A DNA stretch of 28,666 bases from Pseudomonadota bacterium (GTDB lineage: Bacteria > Bdellovibrionota > FAC87 > UBA2466). Positions 3,274 through 25,573 of this stretch are shown one piece after another. Position 1 is the first letter of the stretch. Every line of letters begins with the position of its first letter. The translations under genes were made by a program, and so were the position numbers. The notes beneath the pieces were generated by a model that worked only from the letters and a program-made list of their open reading frames with translations, had not been told where the DNA came from and did not search any database. The DNA lies in NCBI GenBank assembly GCA_043767805.1, contig JAYUGC010000110.1:1-28666 (forward strand), in the 5' to 3' direction.

Positions 3274-3274
<1 letters not shown>

Positions 3275-3690
3275 TGGGCGCGGCGTTTCTCGGAGGCTTA
3301 CTCATCGGTCTCGCGTCCCTGCTGCTTCTGGCTTACAACGGCCGGGTCTGTGGGATCAGCGGCATCTTGGGCGGTCTGATACGAATGCCGTCTCAAGAAA
3401 ATCGCTGGCAACTCGCGTTCGTGCTGGGTCTCTTCGCGGGCGGGCTTGGGTTCGCCTGGTTCAATCCCGAAGCGCTCAGAAACGAGCTCGTCCGTTCTAC
3501 TTATGCTTTGGTCGCGGCCGGTCTACTCGTCGGCTTCGGCACTCGGTTGGGCGGCGGCTGCACCAGTGGCCACGGCGTCTGTGGCATCGGCCGATTCTCC
3601 GTTCGTTCCGTCGTGGCTACTCTCGTCTTCATGGCGGTGGGAGCCATCGTGGTGTTTGTCGTGCATCGTAGCTTTGGGGGGTTCGTTTGA
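3274..3690 (+). CDS. YeeE/YedE family sulfur-compound transporter subunit (PmpA-like)
   Basis: [11 protein letters not shown] and [28 protein letters not shown] signature; four hydrophobic segments. Confidence 0.92.
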
Positions 3691-4103
3691 TGGAAACGCT
3701 TCTCGCCTTTTTCTGCGGACTGATTTTCGCCATCGGTCTTGGCATTTCGGGCATGACCCAGCCCGCGAAGGTCACGGGCTTTCTGGATTTTACCGGGCAT
3801 TGGGATCCGAGCCTCGCCTTCGTCATGGCGGGAGCGGTGGCCCTTTATGCTTTAGGGTATCGGTTTGTGATGAGATGGCAAAAGCCCATCGTCACCAGTC
3901 AGTTCGATTTGCCCAAGGCCCGGCCCGTGGACTCGAAACTTCTGATCGGGGCCGCACTTTTCGGCGCGGGCTGGGGCCTTGCGGGGTATTGCCCTGGCCC
4001 GGCTTTAGTGTCGCTTGCGACTTTCGACAGCCGTCCGGTGATTTTCGTCGCCGCCATGCTGATCGGGATGGCGCTTCACCGCATTCTATTTGCCCGCAAG
4101 TAG
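3687..4103 (+). CDS. YeeE/YedE family sulfur-compound transporter subunit (PmpB-like)
   Basis: [33 protein letters not shown] and [17 protein letters not shown]. Overlaps the upstream stop (start TTG 3687 or ATG 3690). Confidence 0.92.
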
Positions 4104-4428: not shown

Positions 4429-4944
4429 ATGAAACTCGCTTTTCTCATCCTTGGCACATTAATTTTTTCAGTCGGCCTTTTGGCGCTGTTTCTGTATTGG
4501 TACGGGCGCCGCTTGCCGCTGCATCATCGTCAATCGGCGAACGCCGATTTGCCGGTTCCGCCCCAAAGAGTGTGGGAAGCCATCACTCGTTACGATGAAA
4601 TGCCGCGTTGGTGGGACGCTGTCAAAACGGTCGAGACTGAATCGCGTAAGGACGGGACGACGGTCACTTGGAACGTGGATAAGCACGGTCAGCGCATTGG
4701 CTTCGTCACCGAGGCGACCGAAGAGCCGCGTCGCCTCGTACGTCGCATTCTCGACGAGGATCTGCCTTTTGGCGGCAGCTGGACTTTCGAGCTCGAGCGT
4801 AAGGGCAACGGCACCAAGCTCACTCTCAGCGAAGACGGTTTCATCCGGCCGCCGCTCTTTCGGGCCATCGCGCATCTTTTCATCGGCATGAGAGCTACGC
4901 TCGAGGATTTTCTCAAAGCTCTGGCGAAGCACCTGGTTCAGTAA
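4429..4944 (+). CDS. SRPBCC (START-like) family protein with N-terminal membrane anchor
   Basis: N-terminal TM, then PPQRVWEAIT...MPRWW, LPFGGSWTFELE and GTKLTLSEDG. Confidence 0.85.
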   Translation: MKLAFLILGTLIFSVGLLALFLYWYGRRLPLHHRQSANADLPVPPQRVWEAITRYDEMPRWWDAVKTVETESRKDGTTVTWNVDKHGQRIGFVTEATEEPRRLVRRILDEDLPFGGSWTFELERKGNGTKLTLSEDGFIRPPLFRAIAHLFIGMRATLEDFLKALAKHLVQ

Positions 4945-5980
4945 GGTTTCCACCGCAGCTCGAGCCGGAGCCCGCCGTACAGCCGTAGCAATGCTGATTA
5001 ATCTCGATGCTTCGGCGGCTCAGGAAATTCCAATCGGCGTCTTTCACATGAACGCCCGCTTCTCCCGGAGCGCGGATGGGCATGCCGAGCATCTGGTTGA
5101 AGTCGCAGTCATAGAGATAGCCGTCCCAGCCGATGGAAACCGTATTGCGGCACATGACTTCTTTTGCCGCGGCAGGGTTGTAGGCGTTGACGAGCTTTTC
5201 CAAGTACGCCTGTAAATTGCCGCTTGCGTGCAGAAAGTCGAGGAAACGGCTGATGGGCATGTTGGTGATGGCGAAGAGATGATTGAAGTGCACGCCGAAA
5301 CGTTCGCCTAACTGCCGTTTAAAGTCCGCTTCGAGTCCCTTTTGCGGAGGGGGAAGGGACGCTCCCAACGGATTGTAGACGAGATCCAAGAGGAGTCCGG
5401 TGCCCTCTTTGCCGTAGCCCACCTCATTGAGTTGTTTCAGAGCTTGAATCGATCGCTCGAAGACTCCCTCTCCTCTTTGGCTGTCGGTATTTTTCTTCTC
5501 GTAGCAAGGGAGCGAGGAGATGACGTGAACCCCGTGCTCTCGGTAAAAGGTCGGCAAGTAGTGATAGCTCGGGTTGGCGGTGAGGATCGTCAGATTGCAG
5601 CGGACGATGACTTTCCGCCCGAGCTTGGAGATTTCCTCCACGAACCAGCGGAAATTCGGATTCATCTCGGGCGCGCCGCCGGTCAGGTCCACGGTCTCGG
5701 CTCCGCTGCGTCGGAGAGCGGCCAAGCAAGCCTCCATGGTCTCGCGGGTCATGATCTCTTTGCGATCGGGACCGGCATCGACGTGGCAGTGCGCGCAAAT
5801 TTGATTGCACATCTTGCCGACATTGACCTGAAAGACTTCAATCTTCGTCGGCCTTAGTGGAAATAGACCCGACTCCGCGATTTTATCTCCGAATCGGGGA
5901 AGTTTTTCCGAAGCGGTTTCCAGCAGCGCGAGTTGTTTTTCCGAGCTGGCGAGCGGATTCGATTTAGAAAGTAGAGACAC
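4913..5980 (-). CDS. arsS: ArsS-family radical SAM protein with C-terminal Cys-rich (DUF3641-type) domain
   Basis: CNQICAHCH (CxxxCxxC), DLTGGAPEMNP, VMCR..SIGWDGYLYDCDFNQML and HCYGCTAGSGSSCGG. The ORF-track start at 6070 overlaps the YkgJ gene; GTG at 5980 is a more plausible but uncertain start. Function in this genome is not established. Confidence 0.88.
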   Translation of the reverse strand: MSLLSKSNPLASSEKQLALLETASEKLPRFGDKIAESGLFPLRPTKIEVFQVNVGKMCNQICAHCHVDAGPDRKEIMTRETMEACLAALRRSGAETVDLTGGAPEMNPNFRWFVEEISKLGRKVIVRCNLTILTANPSYHYLPTFYREHGVHVISSLPCYEKKNTDSQRGEGVFERSIQALKQLNEVGYGKEGTGLLLDLVYNPLGASLPPPQKGLEADFKRQLGERFGVHFNHLFAITNMPISRFLDFLHASGNLQAYLEKLVNAYNPAAAKEVMCRNTVSIGWDGYLYDCDFNQMLGMPIRAPGEAGVHVKDADWNFLSRRSIEINQHCYGCTAGSGSSCGGNLTEPGASPEL

Positions 5981-5991
5981 TAGAGAGGACT

Positions 5992-6258
5992 TTAGAGACG
6001 TTGGGCAGGCTGGGTCAAGCGCTCGAGCTCGTCGATGAGACGCACGGCTTCGGCGGAGGAAGTTCCGCAAACGGCGAGATCGGGGCTGAAGCGGCGGCAG
6101 ACTTCGGGATAATGCGGCGTATTCCAGACGGTACAGCGGTTAGTTTCGTCCAGATTCACGCAACGCACCCCGGCCGCCTTGCCGTGGGGCATGCCGGGAA
6201 GCGGGCTGGAGATGGATGGCGCCGTACAACAGGCGCCGCATCCGGGTCTACAATCCAT
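5992..6258 (-). CDS. YkgJ-family Cys-cluster (Zn/Fe-chelating) protein
   Basis: MDCRPGCGACCTAPSISS...KAAGVRCVNL...C...PEVCRRF...CG. Confidence 0.88.
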   Translation of the reverse strand: MDCRPGCGACCTAPSISSPLPGMPHGKAAGVRCVNLDETNRCTVWNTPHYPEVCRRFSPDLAVCGTSSAEAVRLIDELERLTQPAQRL

Positions 6259-12003: not shown

Positions 12004-15000
12004 CTAGCGCTTACTCGGAAGCGCTGAGCGCTTACTCACGACGATCGAGAGAATAAAGAACAGAAGCACTAAGACGGACTCGATTGGCCGCGTGGGCCGG
12101 CTCGCTCCGCGCGCGCGGCCGCAGCCTCCGCCTTCCGCGCTGACCGTTCCTCCTGTCGGAGCGGCGTCTTCGGCCGAGTCAGCGGCAGCGACCACCGGCG
12201 CAGCCGCGCCGAACGCGGAAGCGGGAAGCCGCACGGAAGGATCTCCGAAGAAGGTCCAGCTGCGCATCGTATCGGTCATCGCCCTGCCAGTTCCCACCGC
12301 AGTTTTGGCTCTCACCATCACTTCGCCCACCCGCACCGTCGTACCCGGCCGCGCTGTCCCCTGCGCCAGCTCGTTTTGAAATGCCGTCGCGAGCGCCACC
12401 TGAGAGGTGGGTGAGGTGAGTGACGTCGAGCCCCAGAACCCGATCGCCCCTCCGGTCGGGTTCAGCACGAGGGATTCGCCCAGGCTCGTTTCGGCCGGAT
12501 CGGGGTAGTAGAAAACCGAGTTGAGACAGTTAAGTCCGACGACAAAAGGCAAACGCGCATTGGAGAGGCCGGTGGCATCCGCGTTTTTAAAGAACTGGTC
12601 CGTCGCCCAAAGGCCTTCCGCTCCATGACCGAGATAAGTCATGAGCAAAGGTGCTTTACCGAACTGATCGAGCACGGACACTTTTGCCAGAGCGTCCGAG
12701 GCGAAGTCACCGCGGGAGACGGTGTCCGTCACGAAATCGGGCCGCAGCGCCTTCGCACCATCCGAAAGCGCCGCCGCCTTCCCGGCAAAGCCTTCGCCCA
12801 TGGTGTCTCTATCGACGATAAAAGAGAGGGAGGCGGCTGTCGGCGCGCGACCGCCCGATTCATAGGCGAGAAGCTTGGTTACATAGCCTGCGATCACTCC
12901 CGGCTTGTCGGTGGGAAGGCGCCCCACCGCCATGGTCGGCAATCCCGTCGTTTCGTCGGCGACGAACCAGTGGTCGGAGCCGAAATCGTCGTAGGTCCCT
13001 CTTTCCAGAGGCATCGGCATGAGATCGGCTGCGCGCCCATACTCCATGCGATCGGAGGCATCATAAGAAGCATCTCCCAAAAGGAGAACGAACCTGGGAG
13101 CCGGGGCGGCCCACGAAGCTCGCGCGTACAGAAGGAAATCGCGGATGCCCTGAGAGGACTTCATGCCCTGGGAAAACTCTGCGTAAATCTGAGCGGGAGT
13201 TGCCGTTACGACTCGCAAGCCCTCGGACTGCCTCTGGCTGATAAGAGCGCTCGCCGCTTCGAGAAGGGACTGATTTCCGATCACAATGAGATCCGCCCTG
13301 CGGGCCGCGTCCTTTAGAGCGCCGGCGTATCCCTCCACAACCACCACCTGATCTGGAATCAGATAAGCGCCCTCCTGAATGGCGACGAGACGGTACCCCG
13401 AGGTCTCTTCAGTGCCGGCATTTACCAGAAACTGTACTTGGGTGGTCGGACCATCCGCGGCGGAGGAAACCACGTTTGCCACTTTTACCACTCTCGAAGG
13501 ATCGCTTACGTCGTAAACCGATACGTCCGCGTTCTCATTAAAATTGCCCGCGGTGATCACCGCGCCTCTAGTCTCGTTATTTAGCGTTGCCACACCGTTC
13601 AGCGCGAGCCGCGTGGCCCGGTAATCCACCTGGATGCGATCGATATCCAAAATTTCGTACTCGTCGGTTTTCATTCCGGAGGCTATGGCCTCGAGCTTCA
13701 CGCGGTTGGTGCCGGGAACGAAGTAGAGCGAGGGAACCTCGAGGGAAACCTCAGTGGGATCGGCGTCGGTAAAGGCCGCCTCCGCCAGCCGAGCCGCCGA
13801 GCCATTCACCCAAACCGCCAGATGGTGCTCGGGATTTACGGAAAGAGTGCCCCGCCCACGCAGCGCGATTCGGAGGCGCACGGGACGGCTTTCCTCGGGC
13901 TCGAGCGCGGGCAAGGTCAGCTGAAATTCGTGAAAGGCATGAGAGTCCGGCACACGCCCCTGTTGGTGGTAGATGCGCACCCAGTAGAGATGATCCACAG
14001 TGGAGCCCATGGGAACATCGAAGACCTCGCGCAGATTCTCCTCGAACTCGGCATGCCCGGCGGTCGAAGCCAATGTGGACGGAGTCTGACCCGTGGGATC
14101 GCCGTTCAAAACGCCAAAGCGCTTCGCCGGTCCGGTACTTCCCGCTAGCCGCTGCCGCGAAAGGACGATTTCCGAGTACGGATCCTCGAAGCTACGGGTG
14201 CGAACGCCCCAGAACCGGATCGCGTCGCCGGAATTGAAGACGTTATCCGAGTCGACGATCTCGATGGGAATTTCCGAGCCGAACGCGTACGCGCGGAGAT
14301 CGCTCGTCGCCACGCCCGCTAAAGTTGCCTCCGTCCCCCACCGTTTGAGGTCATCGAAGGCCACTTCGTAGAAACCCGTCGCCCCAAAACGAACTCGGAC
14401 GGTTCCTTCCACGGAAGCCGGAGACTGGGCGGCCGCCACCGACGGAGCCTGAGGGGTCCATCCCTGTCCATCCAAACCCACATCGATGGTGATCCGGGTC
14501 GTTCGCCGCACCTGACTCGTCGATCCGTGAAAGAGCACCGGGTTCACCCGGACGCGGACATATTTCTTCAGCTGAATCTGGACGAGAGCTGGGTCCACCT
14601 CGAAGAAGGCGGCGGGATAGTCCGCGTCCAGAGCATAGGCCGGGGCGCTGGGAGAGTAGCTGGGCCGCAGGACTCCCCCCGCGTCCACCGCCCAGGACGG
14701 CGCCGGCTGAACGAGCCGCCCCTCGGAAGCCGCCTCGGTGATGGTTGAATCGAGGACCGCGGCCCCGCTGAAGTCGGCCGGCACTTCCACGAGAATGATT
14801 CGTTCGGGAAGCTCGGGCTTTCCGGCCTCCAGCAAGTTGCTATAGCCCGGCACGCTGATGCTGACGTAACCGGCGTTCCAAGCGGAGACCGGGTATGTGG
14901 TGGCGGGAGGGACGACTTCGAGACGAAACGCCTTCTTGGTTTGGGCGAGGATATGAGCGCCGTTGCCGAGATCCTTCAGGCCTCCGTTCGGACCCATTCC

Positions 15001-18000
15001 CACATCGGAAGGGCTATTGCCCGTGCCCGCGCCTGTCGACGAGTCGGCGGTATTCGTATCGCCCGAAGGAGCAGGTGGCGCGCCCGCGGAGGAGCCGGGG
15101 ATCGCATAGACCGGCCCATGCCGGGTCTTCGTACCGGAAACGGCCACGTCCTCGACGAGATAATAATAGGTGACGTCATTTTCTACGTCGCTATCCACGT
15201 AGCGGTACCTGCCGGAGGCGGAGCTGCTGGAGCTGAGATTTCGGATGAGCGAGGCGTTCACCTGAATGTAGCCGTAAAGCGGGTTCGTGCTCCGATAGAC
15301 ATTGAATCCTTCGTGGCTGGTTTCCACCGTTGTTCTCCAAAGCAAGGCCACCGCGGAGTTATACCCCTCCGCCGACAATGAGTGAAACGTCACCGGCGAG
15401 TTGGCGGCGGAAACCGTGATCGTGCAGTTCGTCGCCGATACTTTGGATTGGGCGACCGGAGCCGGTGCGACGTCCATATCGAAATCTCCGAACCACTGAT
15501 TGAAAGTGATCGTGTTACCGCCACAGCCAGTGGAGGACGCGAGAGTATAAGCCTGGGTATCGGCGGGCACCGGATTATTAGGGCCCCAGTTCCAGCCGAA
15601 GTTCGAGGCGGTGGCGGGGAGCGAGCTCGTATTGAGCTGAAGCGCTTTCATGGACGAGTAAGACGCCGAGAGATTACGAAGCTGTCCCCCGTTGAGATTG
15701 CTGAGAACGGTGGTTCCCCCAACGACCAGCCCGTTCAGATTCAGGTTGTCGATAAGAAACCCGGTCAGGTTCACCGTTCCGCTCGTGGCATTGAAGCCCC
15801 AGGTCCCCGCTCCATTGATTGTGACCAAAGCTTTGTTCGCGGTGGCTTGGGGATAGGCATCGTTCACGCCCGAGGTCGTGAACGTACCGCCGTTCACAGT
15901 AAGTGTCTGGCCCGTGCTGATTTTCAGCGTGCCGCCGCCCTGCACTTCCAAAGTGCCGGCCGCGACGGAAACTCCGTTCGGAAGAATCAAAACCTTTCCG
16001 CTGGGAACGCGAAAAGTAAAATTGGATGTGCCCGGAAATGTCAACGTGGTCACGGTGAGCGTGGTCCCCGCCACGGTAACCGTGCCGCCTCCCGTCTTAT
16101 TGAAAGTGAGCGCGGTAATGGGGGAGGTGCTGGAAATTTGCTGGGCGGCTCCCGTCGCCGCGTCCTCGAGTCTCAGTGTCCCATCATTCTGTGTAAAAGT
16201 CCCCGAGTTGGAAAAGTTGCCCCGAACGGAAAGTATCGCCGAGGTGGCATTCTGCAGGGTCAGCGTCCCGTTTCCGATCGTGAGATTCTTGCAGGTGGCG
16301 GTGCCCGAAGCTCCGTTTACAAGAGGGTTGTTCGAGGCGCTGTCGATCTGACAATCGACGGTGGCGCTCGGCAGCCCGGCGCTCCAGTTGGTGGCGGTGA
16401 ACCAGTTGGTGCTCGTAGTGCCGGTCCAGGTAGTCAAGGTCGACCCTACGATACTGGCGGCCGTCCCCAGAGTAATCGGCGGAGAAGTGGCCCCCGAAAC
16501 AAGGTAACCCTGATCCGTGACCAGATCTCCCGTCGCATAGATTTGCACGCCTACTGTATTTCCGCCCACCGCCGCCGTGGCGACGTCGTACTCCACGTAA
16601 ACGCATCGCTTAGGGGGCGTGGTCGTGCTGGCATGAACGGGAATCTGGCCCACGGACGGACTAAACGTCACGGTTCCCGGACTTCCCGCGAAGGTTCCCG
16701 TGCCCACGAGAGTTCCCGACGCGCCAACACAAGTGGAGTCATAAAAGATCCGTACCTGAGAGATATCGGTGGATGAGCCCGTGCCCGTTAAAGTCAGCTT
16801 GAGAGAGATAATGCTCGCGTCGACGAAGGAGGCGCCCGCCTGACTCTGAGTGAACCCGAACCGCCCCATATTGTAAGTCTGGCCTGCGTTTACGCTGGCA
16901 GGACCCGCGGCGTCCCGGTTGATGGATATCGTATTGGTCGCGCCCGTCCACGAGATCAAGTAGGTGGGAGCCACGTTAAAGGGAATACCCGACAGGTCGC
17001 CGGAATAGCTCGTGATGGCGAGGGTTCCCGCGCTGGCTCCGGTGGTATCTATGTTTTTCACGCCCGTCGCGGCCGAACCGGCGCTTTGAAAGCTCAAAGA
17101 GTCGATGGCATTTCCGGGAATCTGCCGCTTCAGCTTCAAAAAGGTGGAATTGTTGGTCACCGGCGAAGCAAAGGAACCATGCTGCAGATGGTTGGTGTTG
17201 TCTATCGTCGCTCCCGCCTCGATGGAGAGCCCGTTCAGTCCGAGATGATCGAACGTATAGTAGTTGGCGGAGATATTTCCGTTCACGACGACGCTGTAAG
17301 TATTGGCTCCACCCGTCGAGGTGACTTTTACGGTTTGAGAGGCATTTCCAACTAGGGTCAGCGTGCCGCCCAAGTTCACCGTTAGTACGGTTCCGTTTCC
17401 AAGGGCAAGGGTTCCCCCCGGCTCGACTTGCAGCTCGGCACCCGACTGAACGGTGACTGCCGCTCCAGTCAGAGTCAGAGTTTTGCCGCTGCTAATCCGC
17501 AACACTCCGCTGGTCAAAGTGACAGCGCCGCTGAAGGCCGAGTTCTCGTCCACGCTAACGAGATTGTTTCCCGCCGCTCCCGTATTGGCCACGACAAAGC
17601 TGCCCGGAAAGGTGGTTCGCATTTGCAAGCTCTGGCTATTGGCCCCGCGCATTTTGAGCACTCCGGGACCGGCGGTGGCCGCCGTGAAGGTCATGCCCGT
17701 GTTGGCGTCCAGGCTCCCGTAAAGGCCCAGCTCATTCGTCGTATTGTTGTAATCCAACGTGCCGCCCGTCTGCAGAATGCCATTCAGACAGGAGGCCAGT
17801 GCCACGTTCAGGCGCGCGAGGAAAGTCCCGTTTCCGACGCGGCAATCCTGGGTGGAGGTTGGAATCGTATTGGGCGTCCAGTTGTTTTTTGTGTTCCAGG
17901 CATTGGACGCGCCCCCGTCCCAAACGCTCGTCGTTCCGGCGCTCACCGTGGAGGTACCTCCCACGACCGGCGGGCCCGAAGAGCCGGAGAAGCTGTAAGC

Positions 18001-19584
18001 CAGGGAGTTGGTGACGTCCGAAGTTCCTTCGATTCCGAACTGGATAGTAACCGCATTGCGCGCGATGGCACTGGTGGCGGCCAGCACGTGAATGCACGCG
18101 AGATTGGTCGAGCTATTCGTAGCCAGATCACCCGAGGGGATCGAGAAGGTCGCGGTGGGGGGCGAGCCAGAAAGGGTAAGGTCACTACCGATCTGCAGAT
18201 CGGTGCCCGCGTTGTAGACGCAGTTGTAACTCGCCGGCGCGTCCCGGTAGACCCGCACCCGAAGGATATCGGCAGAAGTTGCCGTCCCGGCCTGGGTGAG
18301 AGTCACCGAGGTGATATTGGTGGCGGTGCTCGCTTGATTGAGCGAAAAGGCGAGCGTCGTAAACAACGTGTCCGCCGAGCTTCGCCCCAACGTCGACGTC
18401 GGGCTTCCGACAGCCGTGTTATTGGACAGCGAGAGCAACGTTCCCGCCTGGCTGCCCCAGCCAATTTTTCCGTTGGGATCGTTCTCAAAGGTGCTTCCGC
18501 CCACGCCACCACTCCATTGATTGATCGTTACGGCTGTCAGATTATAGGTGGCGGCATCGAAGTTTTTGACGCTCGCGGCACTGTTATCGTTAAAGAAGCC
18601 TAGGGTGTCCATCGTGGTGGGAATGGAAGCGGCGGCGCCGAGAGTCACCGCGTAACCGCTGGCGGGAAGGTAATGGAACTCACCGTGATCGAGCTTTTGA
18701 ATGGTTCCCGTGACGTTCAAGCCCGCCGCGGTCATGCGATCGATGCGAAAGTAATCGGCGTTGATTTGGCCGGCCACATTCAGCGTGAAAGTAGAGCCCG
18801 CTCCGGCGGACCGAAGCGTCGCGATATTGCCCGCCGCGCCGGCGAGCTGAAGCAAGCCCCCCGAGTTCACCGTAACGGTAGCTCCGTTACTCATGATGAC
18901 CCGGGCTCCCGCTCCAATCTTTAGGGTTCCGGAAACGGTGAGGTTGGTATTGACCGTGAATGTCTGGCTGTTACCGATTTCCAATGTCGCACTGGCCGGG
19001 ATCGTGATCGCGGAGGCGGTGGATTCCACCGTGACGTCCGCGTTCACGAGAACCTTTCCCGTGAAACCGGCCTGCCAGGCAAGTGAGTTGCGGATGGAGA
19101 ACGCTTTCGTGAGAGTCACGGTGGAGTTGGTGGCGATCCGCAAATTATTGATCGGATCGACGTTCTCGAAAGTTTGAGGCGCCGAGCCGGCCATCGAAAT
19201 GAAGGTGGTCGTATCCGCGGCCCGGAAGTTGAGTTGATTGAGAGTGAGGTTGCGGAAGTAGTCTCCACTTACCGTCAGGACGCGGCCGGCGGAAGTGGTG
19301 AGCACTCCGCCCTGAATGTCCACGCAGCCAACCGTGTAGGTAGCGTCAAGAGTGGGAAATCGAACGGCGGAAACGAGTACGGCGTTCTCGGCGGCGGTAT
19401 TGGGGATGTCGGCGATGGTCCAGTTGCCGGCCGTGCCCCACGCCGTGCTGCCGCTACCATTCCAGGTTCGGGTGTTCGCTCCGCACGCGCCGAAAGCTTC
19501 GCCCGTCCGCCAAAGGCAGAGCAGCGCCAAGCCAAATAATAGAACGCGCGTACGTACCACTTTCACCACCTTAAGAGTCCCCAA
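12004..19584 (-). CDS. Giant secreted adhesin-like protein fused to a C25 (gingipain/PorU-like) cysteine peptidase, with a C-terminal GGGC-TM sorting signal
   Basis: Signal peptide (…GEAFG). Three WxG-x3-4-W-x4-NW-capped beta-rich modules, then a PVTF…LLWRT..E…GFNVYRS Ig/FN3 domain and a C25-propeptide-like VPGY…GKPELP region. C25 motifs IYAEFS.G, RFVLLLGDASYD, SDHWF, MAVGRLP, YLGHG and GLNCLN. Tail AEGGGCG…VLVLLFFILSIVVSKR. Start may be TTG 19584 or a GTG at 19569/19566/19560. Confidence 0.88.
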   Translation of the reverse strand: MGTLKVVKVVRTRVLLFGLALLCLWRTGEAFGACGANTRTWNGSGSTAWGTAGNWTIADIPNTAAENAVLVSAVRFPTLDATYTVGCVDIQGGVLTTSAGRVLTVSGDYFRNLTLNQLNFRAADTTTFISMAGSAPQTFENVDPINNLRIATNSTVTLTKAFSIRNSLAWQAGFTGKVLVNADVTVESTASAITIPASATLEIGNSQTFTVNTNLTVSGTLKIGAGARVIMSNGATVTVNSGGLLQLAGAAGNIATLRSAGAGSTFTLNVAGQINADYFRIDRMTAAGLNVTGTIQKLDHGEFHYLPASGYAVTLGAAASIPTTMDTLGFFNDNSAASVKNFDAATYNLTAVTINQWSGGVGGSTFENDPNGKIGWGSQAGTLLSLSNNTAVGSPTSTLGRSSADTLFTTLAFSLNQASTATNITSVTLTQAGTATSADILRVRVYRDAPASYNCVYNAGTDLQIGSDLTLSGSPPTATFSIPSGDLATNSSTNLACIHVLAATSAIARNAVTIQFGIEGTSDVTNSLAYSFSGSSGPPVVGGTSTVSAGTTSVWDGGASNAWNTKNNWTPNTIPTSTQDCRVGNGTFLARLNVALASCLNGILQTGGTLDYNNTTNELGLYGSLDANTGMTFTAATAGPGVLKMRGANSQSLQMRTTFPGSFVVANTGAAGNNLVSVDENSAFSGAVTLTSGVLRISSGKTLTLTGAAVTVQSGAELQVEPGGTLALGNGTVLTVNLGGTLTLVGNASQTVKVTSTGGANTYSVVVNGNISANYYTFDHLGLNGLSIEAGATIDNTNHLQHGSFASPVTNNSTFLKLKRQIPGNAIDSLSFQSAGSAATGVKNIDTTGASAGTLAITSYSGDLSGIPFNVAPTYLISWTGATNTISINRDAAGPASVNAGQTYNMGRFGFTQSQAGASFVDASIISLKLTLTGTGSSTDISQVRIFYDSTCVGASGTLVGTGTFAGSPGTVTFSPSVGQIPVHASTTTPPKRCVYVEYDVATAAVGGNTVGVQIYATGDLVTDQGYLVSGATSPPITLGTAASIVGSTLTTWTGTTSTNWFTATNWSAGLPSATVDCQIDSASNNPLVNGASGTATCKNLTIGNGTLTLQNATSAILSVRGNFSNSGTFTQNDGTLRLEDAATGAAQQISSTSPITALTFNKTGGGTVTVAGTTLTVTTLTFPGTSNFTFRVPSGKVLILPNGVSVAAGTLEVQGGGTLKISTGQTLTVNGGTFTTSGVNDAYPQATANKALVTINGAGTWGFNATSGTVNLTGFLIDNLNLNGLVVGGTTVLSNLNGGQLRNLSASYSSMKALQLNTSSLPATASNFGWNWGPNNPVPADTQAYTLASSTGCGGNTITFNQWFGDFDMDVAPAPVAQSKVSATNCTITVSAANSPVTFHSLSAEGYNSAVALLWRTTVETSHEGFNVYRSTNPLYGYIQVNASLIRNLSSSSSASGRYRYVDSDVENDVTYYYLVEDVAVSGTKTRHGPVYAIPGSSAGAPPAPSGDTNTADSSTGAGTGNSPSDVGMGPNGGLKDLGNGAHILAQTKKAFRLEVVPPATTYPVSAWNAGYVSISVPGYSNLLEAGKPELPERIILVEVPADFSGAAVLDSTITEAASEGRLVQPAPSWAVDAGGVLRPSYSPSAPAYALDADYPAAFFEVDPALVQIQLKKYVRVRVNPVLFHGSTSQVRRTTRITIDVGLDGQGWTPQAPSVAAAQSPASVEGTVRVRFGATGFYEVAFDDLKRWGTEATLAGVATSDLRAYAFGSEIPIEIVDSDNVFNSGDAIRFWGVRTRSFEDPYSEIVLSRQRLAGSTGPAKRFGVLNGDPTGQTPSTLASTAGHAEFEENLREVFDVPMGSTVDHLYWVRIYHQQGRVPDSHAFHEFQLTLPALEPEESRPVRLRIALRGRGTLSVNPEHHLAVWVNGSAARLAEAAFTDADPTEVSLEVPSLYFVPGTNRVKLEAIASGMKTDEYEILDIDRIQVDYRATRLALNGVATLNNETRGAVITAGNFNENADVSVYDVSDPSRVVKVANVVSSAADGPTTQVQFLVNAGTEETSGYRLVAIQEGAYLIPDQVVVVEGYAGALKDAARRADLIVIGNQSLLEAASALISQRQSEGLRVVTATPAQIYAEFSQGMKSSQGIRDFLLYARASWAAPAPRFVLLLGDASYDASDRMEYGRAADLMPMPLERGTYDDFGSDHWFVADETTGLPTMAVGRLPTDKPGVIAGYVTKLLAYESGGRAPTAASLSFIVDRDTMGEGFAGKAAALSDGAKALRPDFVTDTVSRGDFASDALAKVSVLDQFGKAPLLMTYLGHGAEGLWATDQFFKNADATGLSNARLPFVVGLNCLNSVFYYPDPAETSLGESLVLNPTGGAIGFWGSTSLTSPTSQVALATAFQNELAQGTARPGTTVRVGEVMVRAKTAVGTGRAMTDTMRSWTFFGDPSVRLPASAFGAAAPVVAAADSAEDAAPTGGTVSAEGGGCGRARGASRPTRPIESVLVLLFFILSIVVSKRSALPSKR

Positions 19585-20205: not shown

Positions 20206-20763
20206 ATGAGAGCCGATTGCTATAAAGTTTTTACGCTCGCCTTTGTTGCCCTTTTTATCCTGGCTCCAGTCTGTTTCGCCGACGATGTGGCGAAAGACCC
20301 AGTAGCCATGGAGGCGGACGCGGCGGCCCATACCCGGAATCGCGTAGTTTCTCTTTCAAAGTTAACGCCCGAGCAGGTGGACTCACTTCGTGCCAATAAC
20401 TATGGCTGGGGCGAGATACTCCACGTCGGAGCATTCGTCGCCAACGGCCAGTCCTACGATGCGATCGTCGCGGACCGTGCCAGCGGCATGGGATGGGGCG
20501 AAATTGCCAAAAAATATGGCGTGAAATTCGGCGATATCAAGAAGTCAGTCCACGCGGGAATCAAAGACGCGAAAAAAGCCGTTAAGGGAGATGACGCGGC
20601 CAAAAAAGAACTAGGCCAGCTCAAAAAGGAAGCGGACGATATCGAAAAGAGCGACAAAAAAGCAGACAAGGCCGAGAAGCCTGCAAAAATGGACAAAGCC
20701 GATAAATTGGCCAAGCCCGACCATTCTTCCAAACCAGACCATCCCGCTAAGCCGACCAAATAA
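20206..20763 (+). CDS. Hypothetical exported protein with duplicated GWGEI motif and Lys/Asp-rich tail
   Basis: GGAGG RBS, signal peptide (…VCFA), YGWGEI and MGWGEIAKKYGV repeats, tail of KADK/KPDH triplets. Confidence 0.8.
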   Translation: MRADCYKVFTLAFVALFILAPVCFADDVAKDPVAMEADAAAHTRNRVVSLSKLTPEQVDSLRANNYGWGEILHVGAFVANGQSYDAIVADRASGMGWGEIAKKYGVKFGDIKKSVHAGIKDAKKAVKGDDAAKKELGQLKKEADDIEKSDKKADKAEKPAKMDKADKLAKPDHSSKPDHPAKPTK

Positions 20764-20768
20764 GCACT

Positions 20769-21590
20769 ATGGCGCCCGTTAGATATTCGTACCTTGGAAT
20801 GGCGAGCGGTCTCCGGAGAGGCCGCCCGCCTTTTTTAATCGCCATCTTCGTTTCCTCCTGGTTTTGGAGTGGAGCGAATGTCAGTGCAGAAACCCATCCC
20901 TACCTCGGCGCGAGTCTCACCGTCACTCCTTCGGCCAGCGCGACCTCAAGCGCTAGTGACTATTACACGGTGATTTCCACGGGCCTTTCTTGGAAACCCA
21001 AGGAAGCGTGGGTGCATCAGTTTGGCTACGATTTTGGAATCGATGCGCTCAGTGGGGCGGTCACGACCTACTCGACTGTCTCCGTTGGTACCCTTTACCG
21101 GCTGAGCGACACTTTTCGTCCAAAATTTTCGCTACAAAATACGTTTTCGAATAACTTCGATTTCTACGGAGTGAAACTGAAAGCGGCGCTTCGCATGATT
21201 CCGCTCGATGTCTTTCGCATAGATCCCGGCATTCTCTTTTATGCCGATACGGTTGGCTCTAGCTCCCTTGGGGGCTATTTCGATATGAACTGGCAGTGCA
21301 GCGAAACGTGGTCGGTTCAGTTTAACGGCCAGCTACTCGGGTCGGCACCGACCGAGTACGCGCTCGGAGCCGGCGTAACGTACGATGCTTCGGGTGAGTT
21401 CAGCTTGTACGCCTCCGTGAACTACTCAACCGGAATTTCCGCGGCCCCCGTCCTGGGCACGCCGGTGGTAGGCTCTACAAAAAAGCCCTCGATTAAAAAC
21501 CCCAAAGCGGGCCAAACCACCATTGCGGATTACTCCGGCACCACATCCAACAAAACCGCCTGGACGCTAGGAATGCTCTACTCCTTCTAA
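20769..21590 (+). CDS. Hypothetical outer-membrane beta-barrel protein
   Basis: Starts 5 nt after the previous stop (start could be ATG 20799). Signal-like N-terminus, amphipathic aromatic strands, C-terminal beta-signal-like WTLGMLYSF. Confidence 0.7.
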   Translation: MAPVRYSYLGMASGLRRGRPPFLIAIFVSSWFWSGANVSAETHPYLGASLTVTPSASATSSASDYYTVISTGLSWKPKEAWVHQFGYDFGIDALSGAVTTYSTVSVGTLYRLSDTFRPKFSLQNTFSNNFDFYGVKLKAALRMIPLDVFRIDPGILFYADTVGSSSLGGYFDMNWQCSETWSVQFNGQLLGSAPTEYALGAGVTYDASGEFSLYASVNYSTGISAAPVLGTPVVGSTKKPSIKNPKAGQTTIADYSGTTSNKTAWTLGMLYSF

Positions 21591-21740: not shown

Positions 21741-23831
21741 TTAGTAGCGCTTCGACCATTCGAGGAAAGACGAAACGGATCTCTGTTGCTGCGTACCGAA
21801 GGGGTTGTCGATGAAGGTATTGAGAATCCACGAAGGACTCAACCGGCGCTTCAATCCCAGCTGATTCAGGCTTCTCAGGCCCCCGCCCACGTTGAGCGAA
21901 GTGCCATCCGCGATGCGGATCCTCGCCGCGAACGTGTTGGAAGTCGGATCGTAAGTGACGCTCTCGATGGGAGTTGTCGCAAGTAGGTACATGGACGCGA
22001 GCCCCATGGCGCGGTTGGATACGGCGGCTCTCAAGTTGGCTACCGTATCCCCGTCCGTGGGGCTCAGTTCGCTCAACGGCCGGCCGAAGACCAAAACGGA
22101 GTACGCATCTTCTTCGGATAAAGGCGGATTGCTGTCGATGGACAGATGCGGCACTTCCACCGTGCCGTTGATCAAAATCTTCAGACGATACTCCGCGTAC
22201 TTTACGTCCACTTCGCCGTCGATGGGAGGTGACTTGGCCCCTTCGGCTAGCTCCACTCTGAAATGGTGCACGGTTGCCTTGCGCCGCAAGATTTCCACGG
22301 GGAAGGAGTTAATCCGTAGCGTGCCTGTGGCGTCGGACTCCGACGATAAGAAGAGCGTCAGATCCAAAGGCACCGGCGCGGTGGCCAGATTCGAGACGAG
22401 CCGCATCGGCCCGCCGTTATCGGTGTGAATCTTGATCCGATATTGAAAATTCGATTTCGCTTCCGCCACTTCGCGGTCGGGGAACTTGATGCGCGGATCG
22501 GGAAACAGCCGTGGCAGCTTTCCCGGCTCGAGGGGCGGCAAGACCAGCTCCACGTTGGCGAGTGAAACGTCGGCGTCGAGATTGACCAGGGTTTGCTTGG
22601 CTACGCGGCGAAAGCTAATCGCCCCCGTGGCTTTGGTGACGAAGGTCTGGGAAGGAGAGCCGAGCTTCGTCTGGACTAGAAAAGGAATCCTCCCCGATTT
22701 CAGATCGATTTCTGCTCGGCCATCCGTCGAGACCACCAGCTCGCCTTCCATGGCGTTGAGCGGGCTTGGAACGGCGTAGGCTTTGTCTTCGACGACGTTT
22801 ACCGCTCGCTGGAAATTGACGACGTGAGCATCGATTTCGACGGCGGCCGCTAGTTTCTCTTTCGTCAGGTCTTCCAGATGAAACTGCACTTTGCCGTGCC
22901 CGTGCACGATGTCCGTGCGAAAGGGCAGCAGATCGATTTCGACGTTTCCTTTGGGGTCTCGGGAGGCGGTCGTTCCCCCTTCGGCGCGCACGAGCAAGCG
23001 TAGTTTTCCGTCCCAGCCCGAAGTCCATTCGTTGGGAATGACGTTGTCGGTAGGCGTGACCTCCGTCGGGCAGAGCAGGTTCCACTGCATCTTCGCCGTG
23101 AGCAGGTTTTTGAGCTCGAATCCGCAAGCGTCGAGAGACACATGTCTCAGCTCCGGGATGGGCCGCTCGACCCAGCCTTCGATTCTACCTTTGGCGAGCT
23201 TTTCGTTTCCTTGCCCGCGCAAATCCAGCTGAAAGGGCTTAGGTCTGCCGTCTTGGGTGAACTTGCCATGGGCAACGAGTGAATAGTCGGGGCTAGTGCG
23301 GAAAGTGAGCGCGGTTTCCAAAGCCCATTGAGCCGCGTCGATTCTCAAAGACTTGAACTCAAAAGTGAGCGGGCTAACAGCGAGATCTGGGACCTTGGCG
23401 GGATCGGTGGGGCCGGCGTCTTTCGCTTTCTCGGTATCGAGTTGAACCCGGAACCGGCCGTCCATCGCGGTGATGGGGCCCACTTTGAGAAGCCGGGGAG
23501 GAAACGCGGCCAACCGGATTTCCACCTGCGCGTACACGTGACCGAAACAACCCGAGGCGTGGGGCGCGATACCGTCGTAACAAAGGCTCGGCGAGTCCAA
23601 GGTGATTCGCTTATCCCGAAAGCTCAAAGACTCGATCTTGAGGATGGCGTCCGCCGGATAAGTCACATGGATACCCGCGAGCCGGGCGATGGTGGTTGCC
23701 AGCGCGAGAGGGTTCCTAGGCAGAAACCAATGGGGGCGCGCCAGAAACGCGACGGAGAGCAAGGTAAGCAGGGTCGTACCACCGCCCGCCAGCCATGCCA
23801 TGATCCAAAATGTTTTCTTTAGCCGTTTCAA
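21741..23831 (-). CDS. TamB-like (DUF490 / AsmA-like) translocation-assembly protein
   Basis: N-terminal TM anchor, beta-rich body, C-terminal INGTVEVP.LSIDSNPPLSEEDAYSVLVFGR typical of the TamB C-terminus, ends FLEWSKRY. TTG start overlaps the upstream TGA. Confidence 0.8.
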   Translation of the reverse strand: MKRLKKTFWIMAWLAGGGTTLLTLLSVAFLARPHWFLPRNPLALATTIARLAGIHVTYPADAILKIESLSFRDKRITLDSPSLCYDGIAPHASGCFGHVYAQVEIRLAAFPPRLLKVGPITAMDGRFRVQLDTEKAKDAGPTDPAKVPDLAVSPLTFEFKSLRIDAAQWALETALTFRTSPDYSLVAHGKFTQDGRPKPFQLDLRGQGNEKLAKGRIEGWVERPIPELRHVSLDACGFELKNLLTAKMQWNLLCPTEVTPTDNVIPNEWTSGWDGKLRLLVRAEGGTTASRDPKGNVEIDLLPFRTDIVHGHGKVQFHLEDLTKEKLAAAVEIDAHVVNFQRAVNVVEDKAYAVPSPLNAMEGELVVSTDGRAEIDLKSGRIPFLVQTKLGSPSQTFVTKATGAISFRRVAKQTLVNLDADVSLANVELVLPPLEPGKLPRLFPDPRIKFPDREVAEAKSNFQYRIKIHTDNGGPMRLVSNLATAPVPLDLTLFLSSESDATGTLRINSFPVEILRRKATVHHFRVELAEGAKSPPIDGEVDVKYAEYRLKILINGTVEVPHLSIDSNPPLSEEDAYSVLVFGRPLSELSPTDGDTVANLRAAVSNRAMGLASMYLLATTPIESVTYDPTSNTFAARIRIADGTSLNVGGGLRSLNQLGLKRRLSPSWILNTFIDNPFGTQQQRSVSSFLEWSKRY

Positions 23832-25573
23832 AATTCCTCCCCGTAAGACACGAAGAGTTGAAAATGCGATTTCGCGGTATAGCCCGCCGGCGGCGTTCCG
23901 CCGACGATGCCGTGAGCCGCCGAGATTCTAAACGCTCCGATCGGACTTTCCCAACGCAACCCCGCCCCGGGCGAATAGAGCCAGGGCTGGTCGAGTTTCG
24001 CGGGAGCGGACCCGGTTTTTCCGATGTCCAGAAACACCAGGGGTTGCAGTCCCCAGGGAAGCCAGTACCCCAGCCTTAATTCAGTGCTTAGATAAAAAGC
24101 GGTGAGCGCTCCGTTGGCGTTGGGAATTTCCTGAAAACCGAAACCTCTCAAATCCAGCGAGCCGCCGAGATAGTGTCTGAGGTTCGGCGGCAGCGACGTT
24201 TGCTCCGCCGCGGGAGTTAGCGTGGTCGAGAGGCTTCCGCGCATTCCCAGTACGAAGAGCGGCGGATCGAAACTTCCCAGATTCCAAAGTTTGTGAATCG
24301 AGGCGCGCATGGTTTGCGCGGTAATTTCGCCGAGCCACCCTTTGCGGCTGAAGCTTCCGTTGAGAGTGAGCTCGTACCCTGAGCGAGGCGAAGTCCGAAA
24401 CAGCTCGAAGTCGTGACTCATGACCGAAAGATCCGCGCCGAGAGTGAGGTAAGCGGATTGCCGGCGGCCCACGCCGCGCAACGTTCTCTCTCCGATGAGC
24501 GCGGGTCCCGCGTAAAGACTTCCGCCCGCGTCTTGCCCCTCCCACGTTACTCCGGGCGTGATCTGCAATTTCCCGGCGATGACTTCGTAAGCCTGCTGAC
24601 TCTCATGACGGAAAGAAGCGACGGGTTTTACGTGAAAGCGCGACGGCCGATTTTGGTAATACCAAAGCCCGGTGAACGCGAGCTCCTGCTCGTTACGGCG
24701 ATCGCCGCCGTAGTAGCCGGTGAGACTGACTCCCGCTTGCGAGGCGGTGCTACCGACCCGCACGTGTTTCCACGTAGCGCGCGCCGCGAGACCTTTTTCC
24801 GTATTGAGGCCGAAACCGATACTCACCAGCCGGGGCGGCCCCGCGACGTTCTTTTCGAGGATCCCTACGTTAGTTGAGTCGCAGGACGCCGTGAAAAGCG
24901 TATTTTGCAAAACGCCGAGAGAATGAATCCGCTGCGTCGTCAGATCGAGCCAGCGTTCGTTGTAAATCGCGCCGGGATAAAACGCGTGGTAGCGGTTCAA
25001 GACGGCGGCGTTCATGCTTTCGACGGGCTCGATGATGACGTCGCTGATCGTGCCGACGGGGCCCGCGTCGACTTCAATCTTAACTAGCCCTGAGTCCGGA
25101 AAACCCTGAACGCTTACTTTGGGACAAGCGTGGCCAAGACTGCGCAGCTCTTTCAAAAATCGTTTTTCGGTTTCTTGAAGAAGGCTAGGGGTGAGAACTT
25201 CGCCCTTGATGCCGCGGAACCGCGAGAGATCGATGGCGGTAGCGGAGCCTTCCATCACCACATCTTCGACCGTGGTGCGATCGCCCACGTCCACTAGGAC
25301 GCGGTCGGGGGACTCGTCCAAAATGGTGTGGTAGTAGCCGCGGTCCTGCAAAAACGATTTCAGGTGAAAGACCGCCTGGGACCGGGGGACGCGCTTCCAC
25401 GCGGGAACGTCGGCGTCTCCGCAAACGAGGACGGTCTCGGTCATGGTGAGCGAGAACTTGTCGGGGGCCAGAATCCGCACCCCGGGACAGAGCTCCCATT
25501 CCTCGGCCTGTGCCCGAACGCCAAGAAAGGCGGGGACCAGTAGGACCAGGGTTATGAATCGAGACGAGGACAT
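23828..25573 (-). CDS. TamA/BamA-family (Omp85) outer-membrane protein
   Basis: Signal peptide, POTRA-like segments (LQDRGYY, LHSLGVL-like), YLGGSLDLRGF (VRGF lid motif), GAGLRWESPIGAFRISAA, terminal F. Confidence 0.87.
   Translation of the reverse strand: MSSSRFITLVLLVPAFLGVRAQAEEWELCPGVRILAPDKFSLTMTETVLVCGDADVPAWKRVPRSQAVFHLKSFLQDRGYYHTILDESPDRVLVDVGDRTTVEDVVMEGSATAIDLSRFRGIKGEVLTPSLLQETEKRFLKELRSLGHACPKVSVQGFPDSGLVKIEVDAGPVGTISDVIIEPVESMNAAVLNRYHAFYPGAIYNERWLDLTTQRIHSLGVLQNTLFTASCDSTNVGILEKNVAGPPRLVSIGFGLNTEKGLAARATWKHVRVGSTASQAGVSLTGYYGGDRRNEQELAFTGLWYYQNRPSRFHVKPVASFRHESQQAYEVIAGKLQITPGVTWEGQDAGGSLYAGPALIGERTLRGVGRRQSAYLTLGADLSVMSHDFELFRTSPRSGYELTLNGSFSRKGWLGEITAQTMRASIHKLWNLGSFDPPLFVLGMRGSLSTTLTPAAEQTSLPPNLRHYLGGSLDLRGFGFQEIPNANGALTAFYLSTELRLGYWLPWGLQPLVFLDIGKTGSAPAKLDQPWLYSPGAGLRWESPIGAFRISAAHGIVGGTPPAGYTAKSHFQLFVSYGEEF

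Follow-up and report, generated by a model that had tools for sequence, protein, structure and literature searches.

The stretch of DNA analysed here (the window, 28,666 nucleotides) is the whole of contig C110 (JAYUGC010000110.1) in a 4.52-Mb bacterial assembly of 204 contigs (completeness 100%, contamination 2.8%, G+C 57.9%), and on its minus strand, at positions 12004..19584, it carries the giant gene described in this report. The reading frame is single and uninterrupted and runs over 2,526 codons from a TTG start to the stop codon at 12004-12006. A public database copy of the protein (P0002, 2,518 amino acids (aa)) is 100% identical and starts 8 codons downstream, at about 19560. Since close relatives are labelled Oligoflexia, Bdellovibrionales, Halobacteriovoraceae or Bacteriovoracaceae in their source records, the host is a member of Bdellovibrionota. 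The protein family is real, well conserved and uncharacterised, and its kind of enzyme is already known, members of the family already bearing the NCBI name 'C25 family cysteine peptidase'. Its architecture, secretion route and C-terminal tail make it a new variant among C25 enzymes, and a peptide cluster linked to some family members is an independent lead. In the titles and abstract openings of the open literature (subscription journals lie outside this scope), we found nothing on C25 proteins of Bdellovibrionota and nothing on a cysteine-type C-terminal signal in this phylum.

The C25 peptidase unit

The C25 catalytic alpha/beta domain occupies aa 2099-2453 of the giant protein (12226..13290, on the minus strand like all features of the gene given below) and was delimited by Pfam, alignments, the structural model and Foldseek. 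Pfam Peptidase_C25 (PF01364; MEROPS family C25) matched aa 2100-2453 with E=2e-59 and a score of 202.2 bits (cut-off 23), the match spanning positions 2-374 of the 374-position profile. The catalytic residues are His2320 (codon 12625-12627) in the motif YLGHG and Cys2353 (codon 12526-12528) in the motif GLNCLN, exactly where a preliminary description of the locus, made from the letters of the window, had placed them. In a sequence search of the PDB, these motifs were aligned with YTGHG and DVACVN of the gingipain RgpB (1cvr/4ief) and with PorU (6za2), and both residues are invariant in a 17-sequence alignment of the family. When aa 1391-2526 were modelled by AlphaFold with 18 aligned sequences, the mean predicted local distance difference test score (pLDDT) was 84.1 and the predicted template modelling score (pTM) was 0.77. 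Foldseek ranked latent PorU (6za2) at the top for this model (E=4.4e-27, 840 aligned columns), and the catalytic fold also matched RgpB (TMt 0.67, root-mean-square deviation 3.6 over 376 columns) and Kgp (TMt 0.61); the caspase-like proteases CHAT and separase appeared lower in the same list. The preliminary description had asked for a check by AlphaFold, and the region does model as a caspase-like C25 fold. Its central claim, the fusion of a giant adhesin-like protein with an intact PorU- or gingipain-like C25 peptidase, is borne out by the Pfam score, the invariant dyad and the top-ranking PorU fold.

The catalytic domain is preceded by beta-sandwich domains (aa 1729-2090, 13315..14400), which form part of the PorU-like module according to DSSP analysis of the model, PorU 6za2 and NF033707, and further upstream by a C25-prodomain-like domain (aa 1537-1705, 14470..14976). 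Pfam Propeptide_C25 matched the latter weakly (E=0.086, aa 1575-1707) and reached 27.1 bits, above its cut-off of 22, in the paralogue on contig C23 of the same genome. In Foldseek, the domain matched the prodomains of RgpB (4ief_C, E=4.9e-9, TMt 0.64) and Kgp (5mun_A, TMt 0.67). Based on these fold matches, the prodomain-like assignment, already proposed as a propeptide-like region, stands despite the weak Pfam result. A disordered G/S/T/P-rich linker (aa 1495-1536, 14977..15102; pLDDT 44-52 at model residues 120-140) separates it from an FN3-like beta-sandwich (aa 1397-1494, 15103..15396), whose strands lie at model residues 8-104 with pLDDT of 59-91 by 10-residue block and in which W1416, T1418, E1421, H1424, G1426, F1427 and R1431 are invariant in the 17-sequence alignment. 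The Ig/FN3 domain suggested earlier for 15396 to about 15105 is therefore supported by the modelled beta-sandwich, but the Pfam scan gave no significant fn3 match for it. As judged from sequence and model, the C25 unit is complete: its catalytic domain, which has an intact His/Cys dyad, is accompanied by beta-sandwiches and by a prodomain-like domain, and the unit is predicted to be an active enzyme.

PorU of Porphyromonas gingivalis (6ZA2) is the best match of the giant in both sequence (E=5.1e-11) and fold, and the C25 unit of the giant is likewise multi-domain, with beta-sandwiches around the catalytic domain and with the His and Cys residues aligned. However, the giant has 1,390 extra N-terminal residues and ends in a cysteine-transmembrane-basic tail instead of a domain resembling the C-terminal domain (CTD) of type IX secretion system (T9SS) cargo. 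It also stays below the cut-off of NF033707, the PorU equivalog model (168.8 bits against 420; aa 1880-2456, profile positions 167-735 of 1095), and neither T9SS markers nor CTD cargo were found in its genome. The gingipains RgpB and Kgp share with the giant the catalytic fold, an N-terminal prodomain of the same fold and the catalytic dyad, but they are 16-18% identical to it and use another secretion route, and in the giant the other domains precede the catalytic domain. Gingipains carry their adhesin/IgSF domains and CTD downstream of the catalytic domain; beyond the catalytic domain of the giant, Pfam and the model revealed no IgSF or haemagglutinin-adhesin domain and no T9SS CTD. An autotransporter barrel is also missing, as no Pfam barrel domain was matched and the model ends in a single alpha-helix, so that the earlier statement that both a T9SS CTD and an autotransporter barrel are lacking agrees with Pfam, NCBIfam and the model. 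The placement of the protein outside a T9SS context was likewise supported, since SprA_N and Por_Secre_tail had no match in the 100%-complete genome, a negative result that comes with no positive control because 14 control genomes had no match either.

The preliminary description had regarded the order of adhesin before protease as unusual. Among 58 database relatives collected by a word-indexed database search, however, 44 have the C25 histidine at most 220 aa from the C-terminus, with 1,200-2,900 aa made up of other domains in front of it, indicating that this order is common in uncharacterised C25 proteins and is no peculiarity of the giant. Giant repeat C25 proteins of other phyla (DUF11/CARDB 'TIGR01451 family', uncharacterised) also show a long N-terminal array with a terminal C25 domain, although their N-terminal domains belong to other Pfam families. 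Inspection by eye showed that 17 of the 44 terminal-C25 relatives carry a cysteine tail, namely 16 members of the giant family and P0044, whereas the other 27 end right after the C25 domain without a tail.

The C-terminal tail and its distribution

The giant protein continues for only 73 residues beyond the catalytic domain. An Ala/Pro-rich linker, the Gly-rich signature GGGCG containing Cys2488 (codon 12121-12123) and a 13-aa spacer (together 12085..12225, delimited by alignment with the tails of relatives) are followed by a transmembrane (TM) helix (aa 2501-2517, 12034..12084), which is formed in the AlphaFold model at model residues 1110-1130 and is found in relatives, and by a basic end, KRSALPSKR (aa 2518-2526, 12007..12033), which by its sequence would be cytoplasmic. 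The helix opens with Ile-Glu-Ser, a hydrophobic-Glu2502-hydrophobic arrangement seen in most relatives; in contrast to the helix, the motif is disordered in the model (pLDDT 30-41). Cys2488 is invariant in the 17-sequence alignment. By eye, the tripartite tail of cysteine, TM helix and basic cluster was recognised in 16 of 16 giant relatives, and the same tail was seen in all 14 genome loci with a readable plus-strand frame. The membrane tether proposed earlier is thus partly right: a C-terminal TM helix is present, but it is part of a conserved cysteine-spacer-TM-basic tail in the C-terminal 40 residues, which is more than a tether.

The same kind of tail is found on unrelated proteins of the same genome, namely an M10 matrixin-like protease (C122:25547-26464, L050), an M36 fungalysin-like protease (C200:5660-7522, L074) and a Gly-rich secreted protein (C183:3298-4926, L051), all of which have a C-terminus built of Gly-x-Gly-Cys, spacer, helix and basic cluster. 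These proteins were found by a wider pattern search together with a hidden Markov model (HMM) of tails built from mixed seeds. A narrow pattern and an HMM of giant tails alone had matched only the two giants, as if the tail were private to C25 giants, and this idea was overturned by the wider patterns, the mixed-seed HMM and homologous proteins elsewhere. In four other genomes (G171, G056, G234 and G173), the M10 and Gly-rich proteins have homologues that keep the tail, and details of the tail co-vary by lineage across unrelated proteins. In G173, the tails of unrelated proteins share CGT..N/S...GPGA.AIA ahead of the helix, and in G056 they share a proline within the helix. Homologues of the Gly-rich protein were also found in genera without giant C25 genes, where six of the seven that were read keep the tail and the seventh is apparently truncated; three such genera (g7, g11 and g12) have no giant gene and yet carry tail-bearing Gly-rich homologues. 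These genera rule out the giant C25 domain as the sortase of the tail system, and since the tail occurs both on C25-free proteins and in giant-free genera, an enzyme other than the C25 domain of the giant would handle it.

The hallmarks of general C-terminal sorting signals are set out in a preprint by Haft (10.1101/2023.06.07.544157), and the tail shows them in being common to unrelated proteins and varying by lineage. Based on these sequence comparisons, we suggest that the tail is a general sorting signal resembling MYXO-CTERM, and that the giant is a client of it and not its own sortase. As described in PMC11980579, MYXO-CTERM consists of an invariant cysteine, a helix and an Arg-rich end, is cut by the Rce1-like myxosortase MrtX, and leads to display via the type II secretion system (T2SS). 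The tail of the giant resembles this signal, known from TraA of Myxococcus xanthus, in its tripartite build with an invariant cysteine, a TM helix and a basic end, in being common to unrelated secreted proteins of one genome with lineage-specific variation, and in the presence of a T2SS; the marker of the latter, the GspD secretin, reached 530 bits in the genome against a cut-off of 351. On the other hand, the tail stays below the curated models and no myxosortase core above cut-off accompanies it, the spacer between cysteine and helix is longer (13-25 aa) with a Glu usually at the start of the helix, and about five to six clients were seen here compared with dozens per myxobacterial genome according to PMC11980579. 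The accessible text of 10.1101/2023.06.07.544157 gives MYXO-CTERM as limited to Myxococcota and Bradymonadales, and the word 'Bdellovibrio' does not occur in that text. A second comparison is offered by VesB of Vibrio cholerae (GlyGly-CTERM/rhombosortase), which has been described as a surface-retained secreted protease with a cleaved tripartite C-terminal signal and a T2SS; it differs in being a serine protease, in having a Gly-Gly motif without cysteine and in being served by a dedicated rhombosortase. In another lineage, the database relative P0044 (1,841 aa) is a C25 protein with a short MYXO-CTERM-like tail (..TGCSVAG.., helix, RRARGG), which suggests that C25 proteases are clients of cysteine-type sorting signals elsewhere, too.

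Family, passenger and gene neighbourhood

In a census with the C-terminal 1,136 aa as the query (E<=1e-20), the giant family was found in 27 of 301 sampled Bdellovibrionota genomes and in 18 of 169 genera, with open frames of 702-3,543 aa and with one or two copies in most of the positive genomes. It has so far been found only in Bdellovibrionota. The genome of the window has three giant paralogues, on contigs C110, C197 and C23, and three short C25 genes, on C184, C56 and C122. The paralogue on C23 (C23:9354-17264) is 40% identical to aa 93-2045 and runs off the contig, its C25 domain being absent from the assembly. A single-protein search of the genome contigs gave two matches only, both irrelevant and at the FN3 level.

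The N-terminus was read from the sequence and by comparison with relatives as a putative signal peptide (aa 1-33) followed directly by a conserved Cys34 (codon 19483-19485; together 19483..19584), in a motif [F/W/Y/L/M]-[G/S/A]-A-C. All 9 relatives in which the N-terminus of module 1 (the first of the three passenger modules described below) is complete retain Cys34. It could be the cysteine of a lipobox, or it could follow a signal-peptidase I site and serve in a disulfide. Modules 2 and 3 have a cysteine pair at the place matching the Cys34 region, and since module 1 lacks the first cysteine of this pair, Cys34 may be the disulfide partner of Cys87.

The preliminary description of a G/T/S/A/N-rich passenger of about 1,390 aa agrees with the composition of aa 33-1390, where these five residues make up 56.0%, compared with 32.7% across the 2,691 open reading frames (ORFs) of at least 300 aa in the genome. 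The passenger is not uniform low-complexity sequence but consists of three mutually homologous all-beta modules. Module 1 (aa 38-545, 17950..19473), delimited by internal homology, has a beta-helix-like all-beta part and a beta-sandwich; module 2 (aa 546-1015, 16540..17949) was delimited by internal homology, the AlphaFold model m1b1e0e53c222 and Foldseek; and module 3 (aa 1016-1390, 15415..16539) is, from internal homology and the model, a shorter beta-helix copy with a conserved C-terminal piece. In the self-comparison, aa 38-516 and aa 552-1015 were 29% identical (E=1.6e-28), and the shorter third copy, aa 1061-1366, matched module 2 with E=5.2e-10 and module 1 with E=1.3e-4. The model of modules 2 and 3 (m1b1e0e53c222) consists nearly entirely of strands, with pLDDT of 86.2 but pTM of only 0.52. 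Its Foldseek matches were right-handed beta-helices (phage tailspikes, PL6 lyases and antigen 43/Ag43) and small beta-sandwiches; all of them were weak, with just one at E<=0.001 and none above a TM of 0.2. With modest confidence, we describe the modelled modules as a beta-helix plus a sandwich. No Pfam family matched the passenger, and a search of 1.84 billion cluster representatives gave 63 matches at E<=1e-30, together with weaker repeats in other giant proteins.

In a comparison with the surroundings of giant genes from ten other genomes, the window copy shared no conserved neighbour, and its flanking ORFs matched no Pfam family. The comparison revealed, however, a recurrent cluster for a modified peptide beside other copies. 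Its genes encode an ATP-binding cassette (ABC) ATPase, an ABC-2 permease, an NTP_transf_5 nucleotidyltransferase, a P-loop kinase-like protein, PqqD and a radical S-adenosylmethionine (rSAM)/SPASM enzyme, and none of them reached the cut-off of a curated NCBIfam family. The cluster was located at L044, L049, L039, L036, L042/L043 and, in the genome of the window, on contig C23 (C23:6757-9151; L052:758-3152), directly upstream of the third giant paralogue and on the same strand. All six clusters read contain a precursor ORF of 53-82 aa with a Lys-rich leader, a core with two conserved cysteines and a C-terminal Ser. An HMM of the six precursors detected a second precursor copy on contig C134 of the same genome (E=4.7e-17). 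By eye, the tail of the giant resembles the core (FG..C.G...GR..GPP), and we considered it as a second substrate of the rSAM enzyme; this idea was dropped, as no giant tail was among the 25 best matches listed for the six-precursor HMM and the tail HMM did not match the precursors.

Elsewhere in the window, genes for a TamB-like protein (696 aa) and an Omp85/TamA-like protein (581 aa) lie upstream of the giant gene on the same strand (21741-25573, minus strand), and no link between them and the giant was shown. Two plus-strand ORFs between the Tam genes and the giant encode a Lys-rich secreted protein (20206-20763) and a probable beta-barrel ending in ...LYSF (20769-21590). A radical-SAM protein with DUF3641 (4913-6070, minus strand) is unrelated to the peptide cluster, and two membrane genes at 3274-4103 (plus strand) form a split pair of the sulphur-transport-like kind (Sulf_transp and DUF6691). 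A scan for promoters gave 0 candidate sites, and terminator-like sites numbered 7, which is not above the shuffled-sequence mean of 10.3.

Proposed route to the cell surface and its alternatives

Based on the features described above, we consider it probable that the giant is a Sec-exported envelope protease which is sorted to the cell surface via its tail. By analogy with MYXO-CTERM/TraA and GlyGly-CTERM/VesB, the tail would retain the precursor for a time in the inner membrane once Sec has exported it. The cysteine would then be modified and the helix cut off at the cysteine motif by an intramembrane protease, for which the Rce1-like protein encoded on contig C103 is the best candidate, and the mature protein would reach the cell surface, probably through the T2SS. 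There, the long stalk would display the C25 protease as a zymogen, and removal of the prodomain would activate it. Possible substrates are prey or matrix proteins, the cell's own surface proteins, or the leader of the linked modified peptide.

Several results weigh against this picture. The tail of the giant has no NCBIfam match at E<=10; TIGR03901 reached at best 15.3 bits in the whole genome against a cut-off of 20, and not on the giant gene, and for TIGR03382 one of ten tails of relatives came near the cut-off (14.8 against 15.85). The HMM of giant tails alone did not match the other clients significantly, and four of the five matches of the mixed-seed HMM were its own seeds, the sole non-seed being the M36 protease on C200 (E=0.0073). 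As for the enzyme, the best match to the myxosortase core NF040914 in the genome scored 35.9 bits against a cut-off of 100, a level typical of generic Rce1-like proteins and also reached, below the cut-off, in 10 of 14 control genomes; no rhombosortase above cut-off and no exosortase at all were found in the genome search. The genome has two full-length Rce1-like genes. In the 34 genomes of the taxonomic family, the C103 type is present in 31 and the C74 type in 3, compared with giants in 6, so that neither of them tracks the giants in phylogenetic profiling. The C103 protein, a candidate housekeeping sorting enzyme, is singled out by nothing in particular. In addition, we infer cleavage, lipidation, location, activation, proteolysis and substrates alike by analogy.

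The preliminary description had raised another explanation, in which the C-terminal helix keeps the protein tethered while the protein's own C25 domain acts in a PorU-like manner, cutting the linker or tail or re-anchoring the passenger by transpeptidation. Consistent with this, PorU gives the best structural match (840 columns), the tail of giants always comes directly after the C25 domain, and no dedicated sorting enzyme reaches its curated cut-off in the genome. Yet the M10, M36 and Gly-rich proteins carry the same tail with no C25 domain of their own, and its occurrence in genera without a giant C25 gene means that another enzyme must handle it there; the NF033707 score is far from the equivalog level, and the tail in the monomer model is disordered and undocked from the active site. 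Self-anchoring or re-anchoring is therefore contradicted by the distribution of the tail, and we regard this explanation as quite unlikely. If the tail were instead a plain stop-transfer anchor, the protein would stay in the inner membrane and act in the periplasm. Its topology, a signal peptide at one end and a single helix with a basic terminus at the other, would give such a state at least transiently, and the lack of an identified sorting enzyme suits this explanation. An anchor, however, needs neither an invariant cysteine nor a Gly-rich motif, both of which are conserved across unrelated proteins and lineages; moreover, a stalk of three beta-helix modules and about six more domains seems too long for the periplasm, and the other tail-bearing proteins are proteases of the secreted type. 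A permanent inner-membrane location thus appears improbable to us.

The peptide cluster offers a further explanation, namely that the giants are partners of the adjoining rSAM/PqqD cluster, for example as an extracellular peptidase that removes the Lys-rich leader of the precursor. Of the 27 giant-positive genomes, 12 have the cluster no more than 5 kb from a giant gene, and in the taxonomic family of the window the rSAM gene is present in 5 of 6 giant-positive and 0 of 28 giant-negative genomes. No protease is encoded in the cluster alongside the precursor, the rSAM/SPASM enzyme, PqqD, the kinase-like protein, the nucleotidyltransferase and the ABC exporter, and cleavage after Lys or Arg, as known from gingipains, fits a Lys-rich leader. 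Against this, the giant copy in the window is not beside a peptide cluster, and the rSAM gene is absent at E<=1e-60 from 13 of the 27 giant-positive genomes (three of which have an adjacent, more divergent copy) and was not found in G066 and G133. Conversely, 14 of the 18 rSAM-positive genomes in the phylum sample carry giants and four do not, and related genomes are not independent observations of such a link. We also know of no precedent for a leader peptidase of 2,500 aa. Partnership with the peptide cluster is accordingly an unlikely main role for the giants in our judgement. A broader and speculative reading would join both lines: an undescribed cysteine-type sorting pathway of Bdellovibrionota, with the signature Gly-x-Gly-Cys, long spacer, helix usually opening with Glu and basic end, would serve a few clients, mostly surface proteases, and the giants would work with a new class of rSAM-modified peptides. 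We consider this combination rather unlikely as a whole. If true, the giants might process the Lys-rich leader extracellularly or bear the peptide on the cell surface, and one surface apparatus of predatory cells would bring together gingipain-like protease, sorting signal and peptide natural product.

To our knowledge, all characterised C25 peptidases come from Bacteroidota and depend on type IX secretion. The giant family has an intact PorU/gingipain unit, including the prodomain, in another phylum and with what would be another delivery route, and it is a tractable case for the role of C25 enzymes outside the T9SS. Separately, the recurrent rSAM cluster offers a way into an as yet unclassified modified peptide. 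With this tail, the cysteine-type C-terminal sorting signals of the MYXO-CTERM class would reach into Bdellovibrionota; the present curated models fail to detect it there, and proteins of this phylum that carry it are likely annotated as membrane-anchored while they may be displayed on the surface. Since the clients of the tail are proteases of mostly predatory bacteria, they are candidates for a part in prey contact or digestion.

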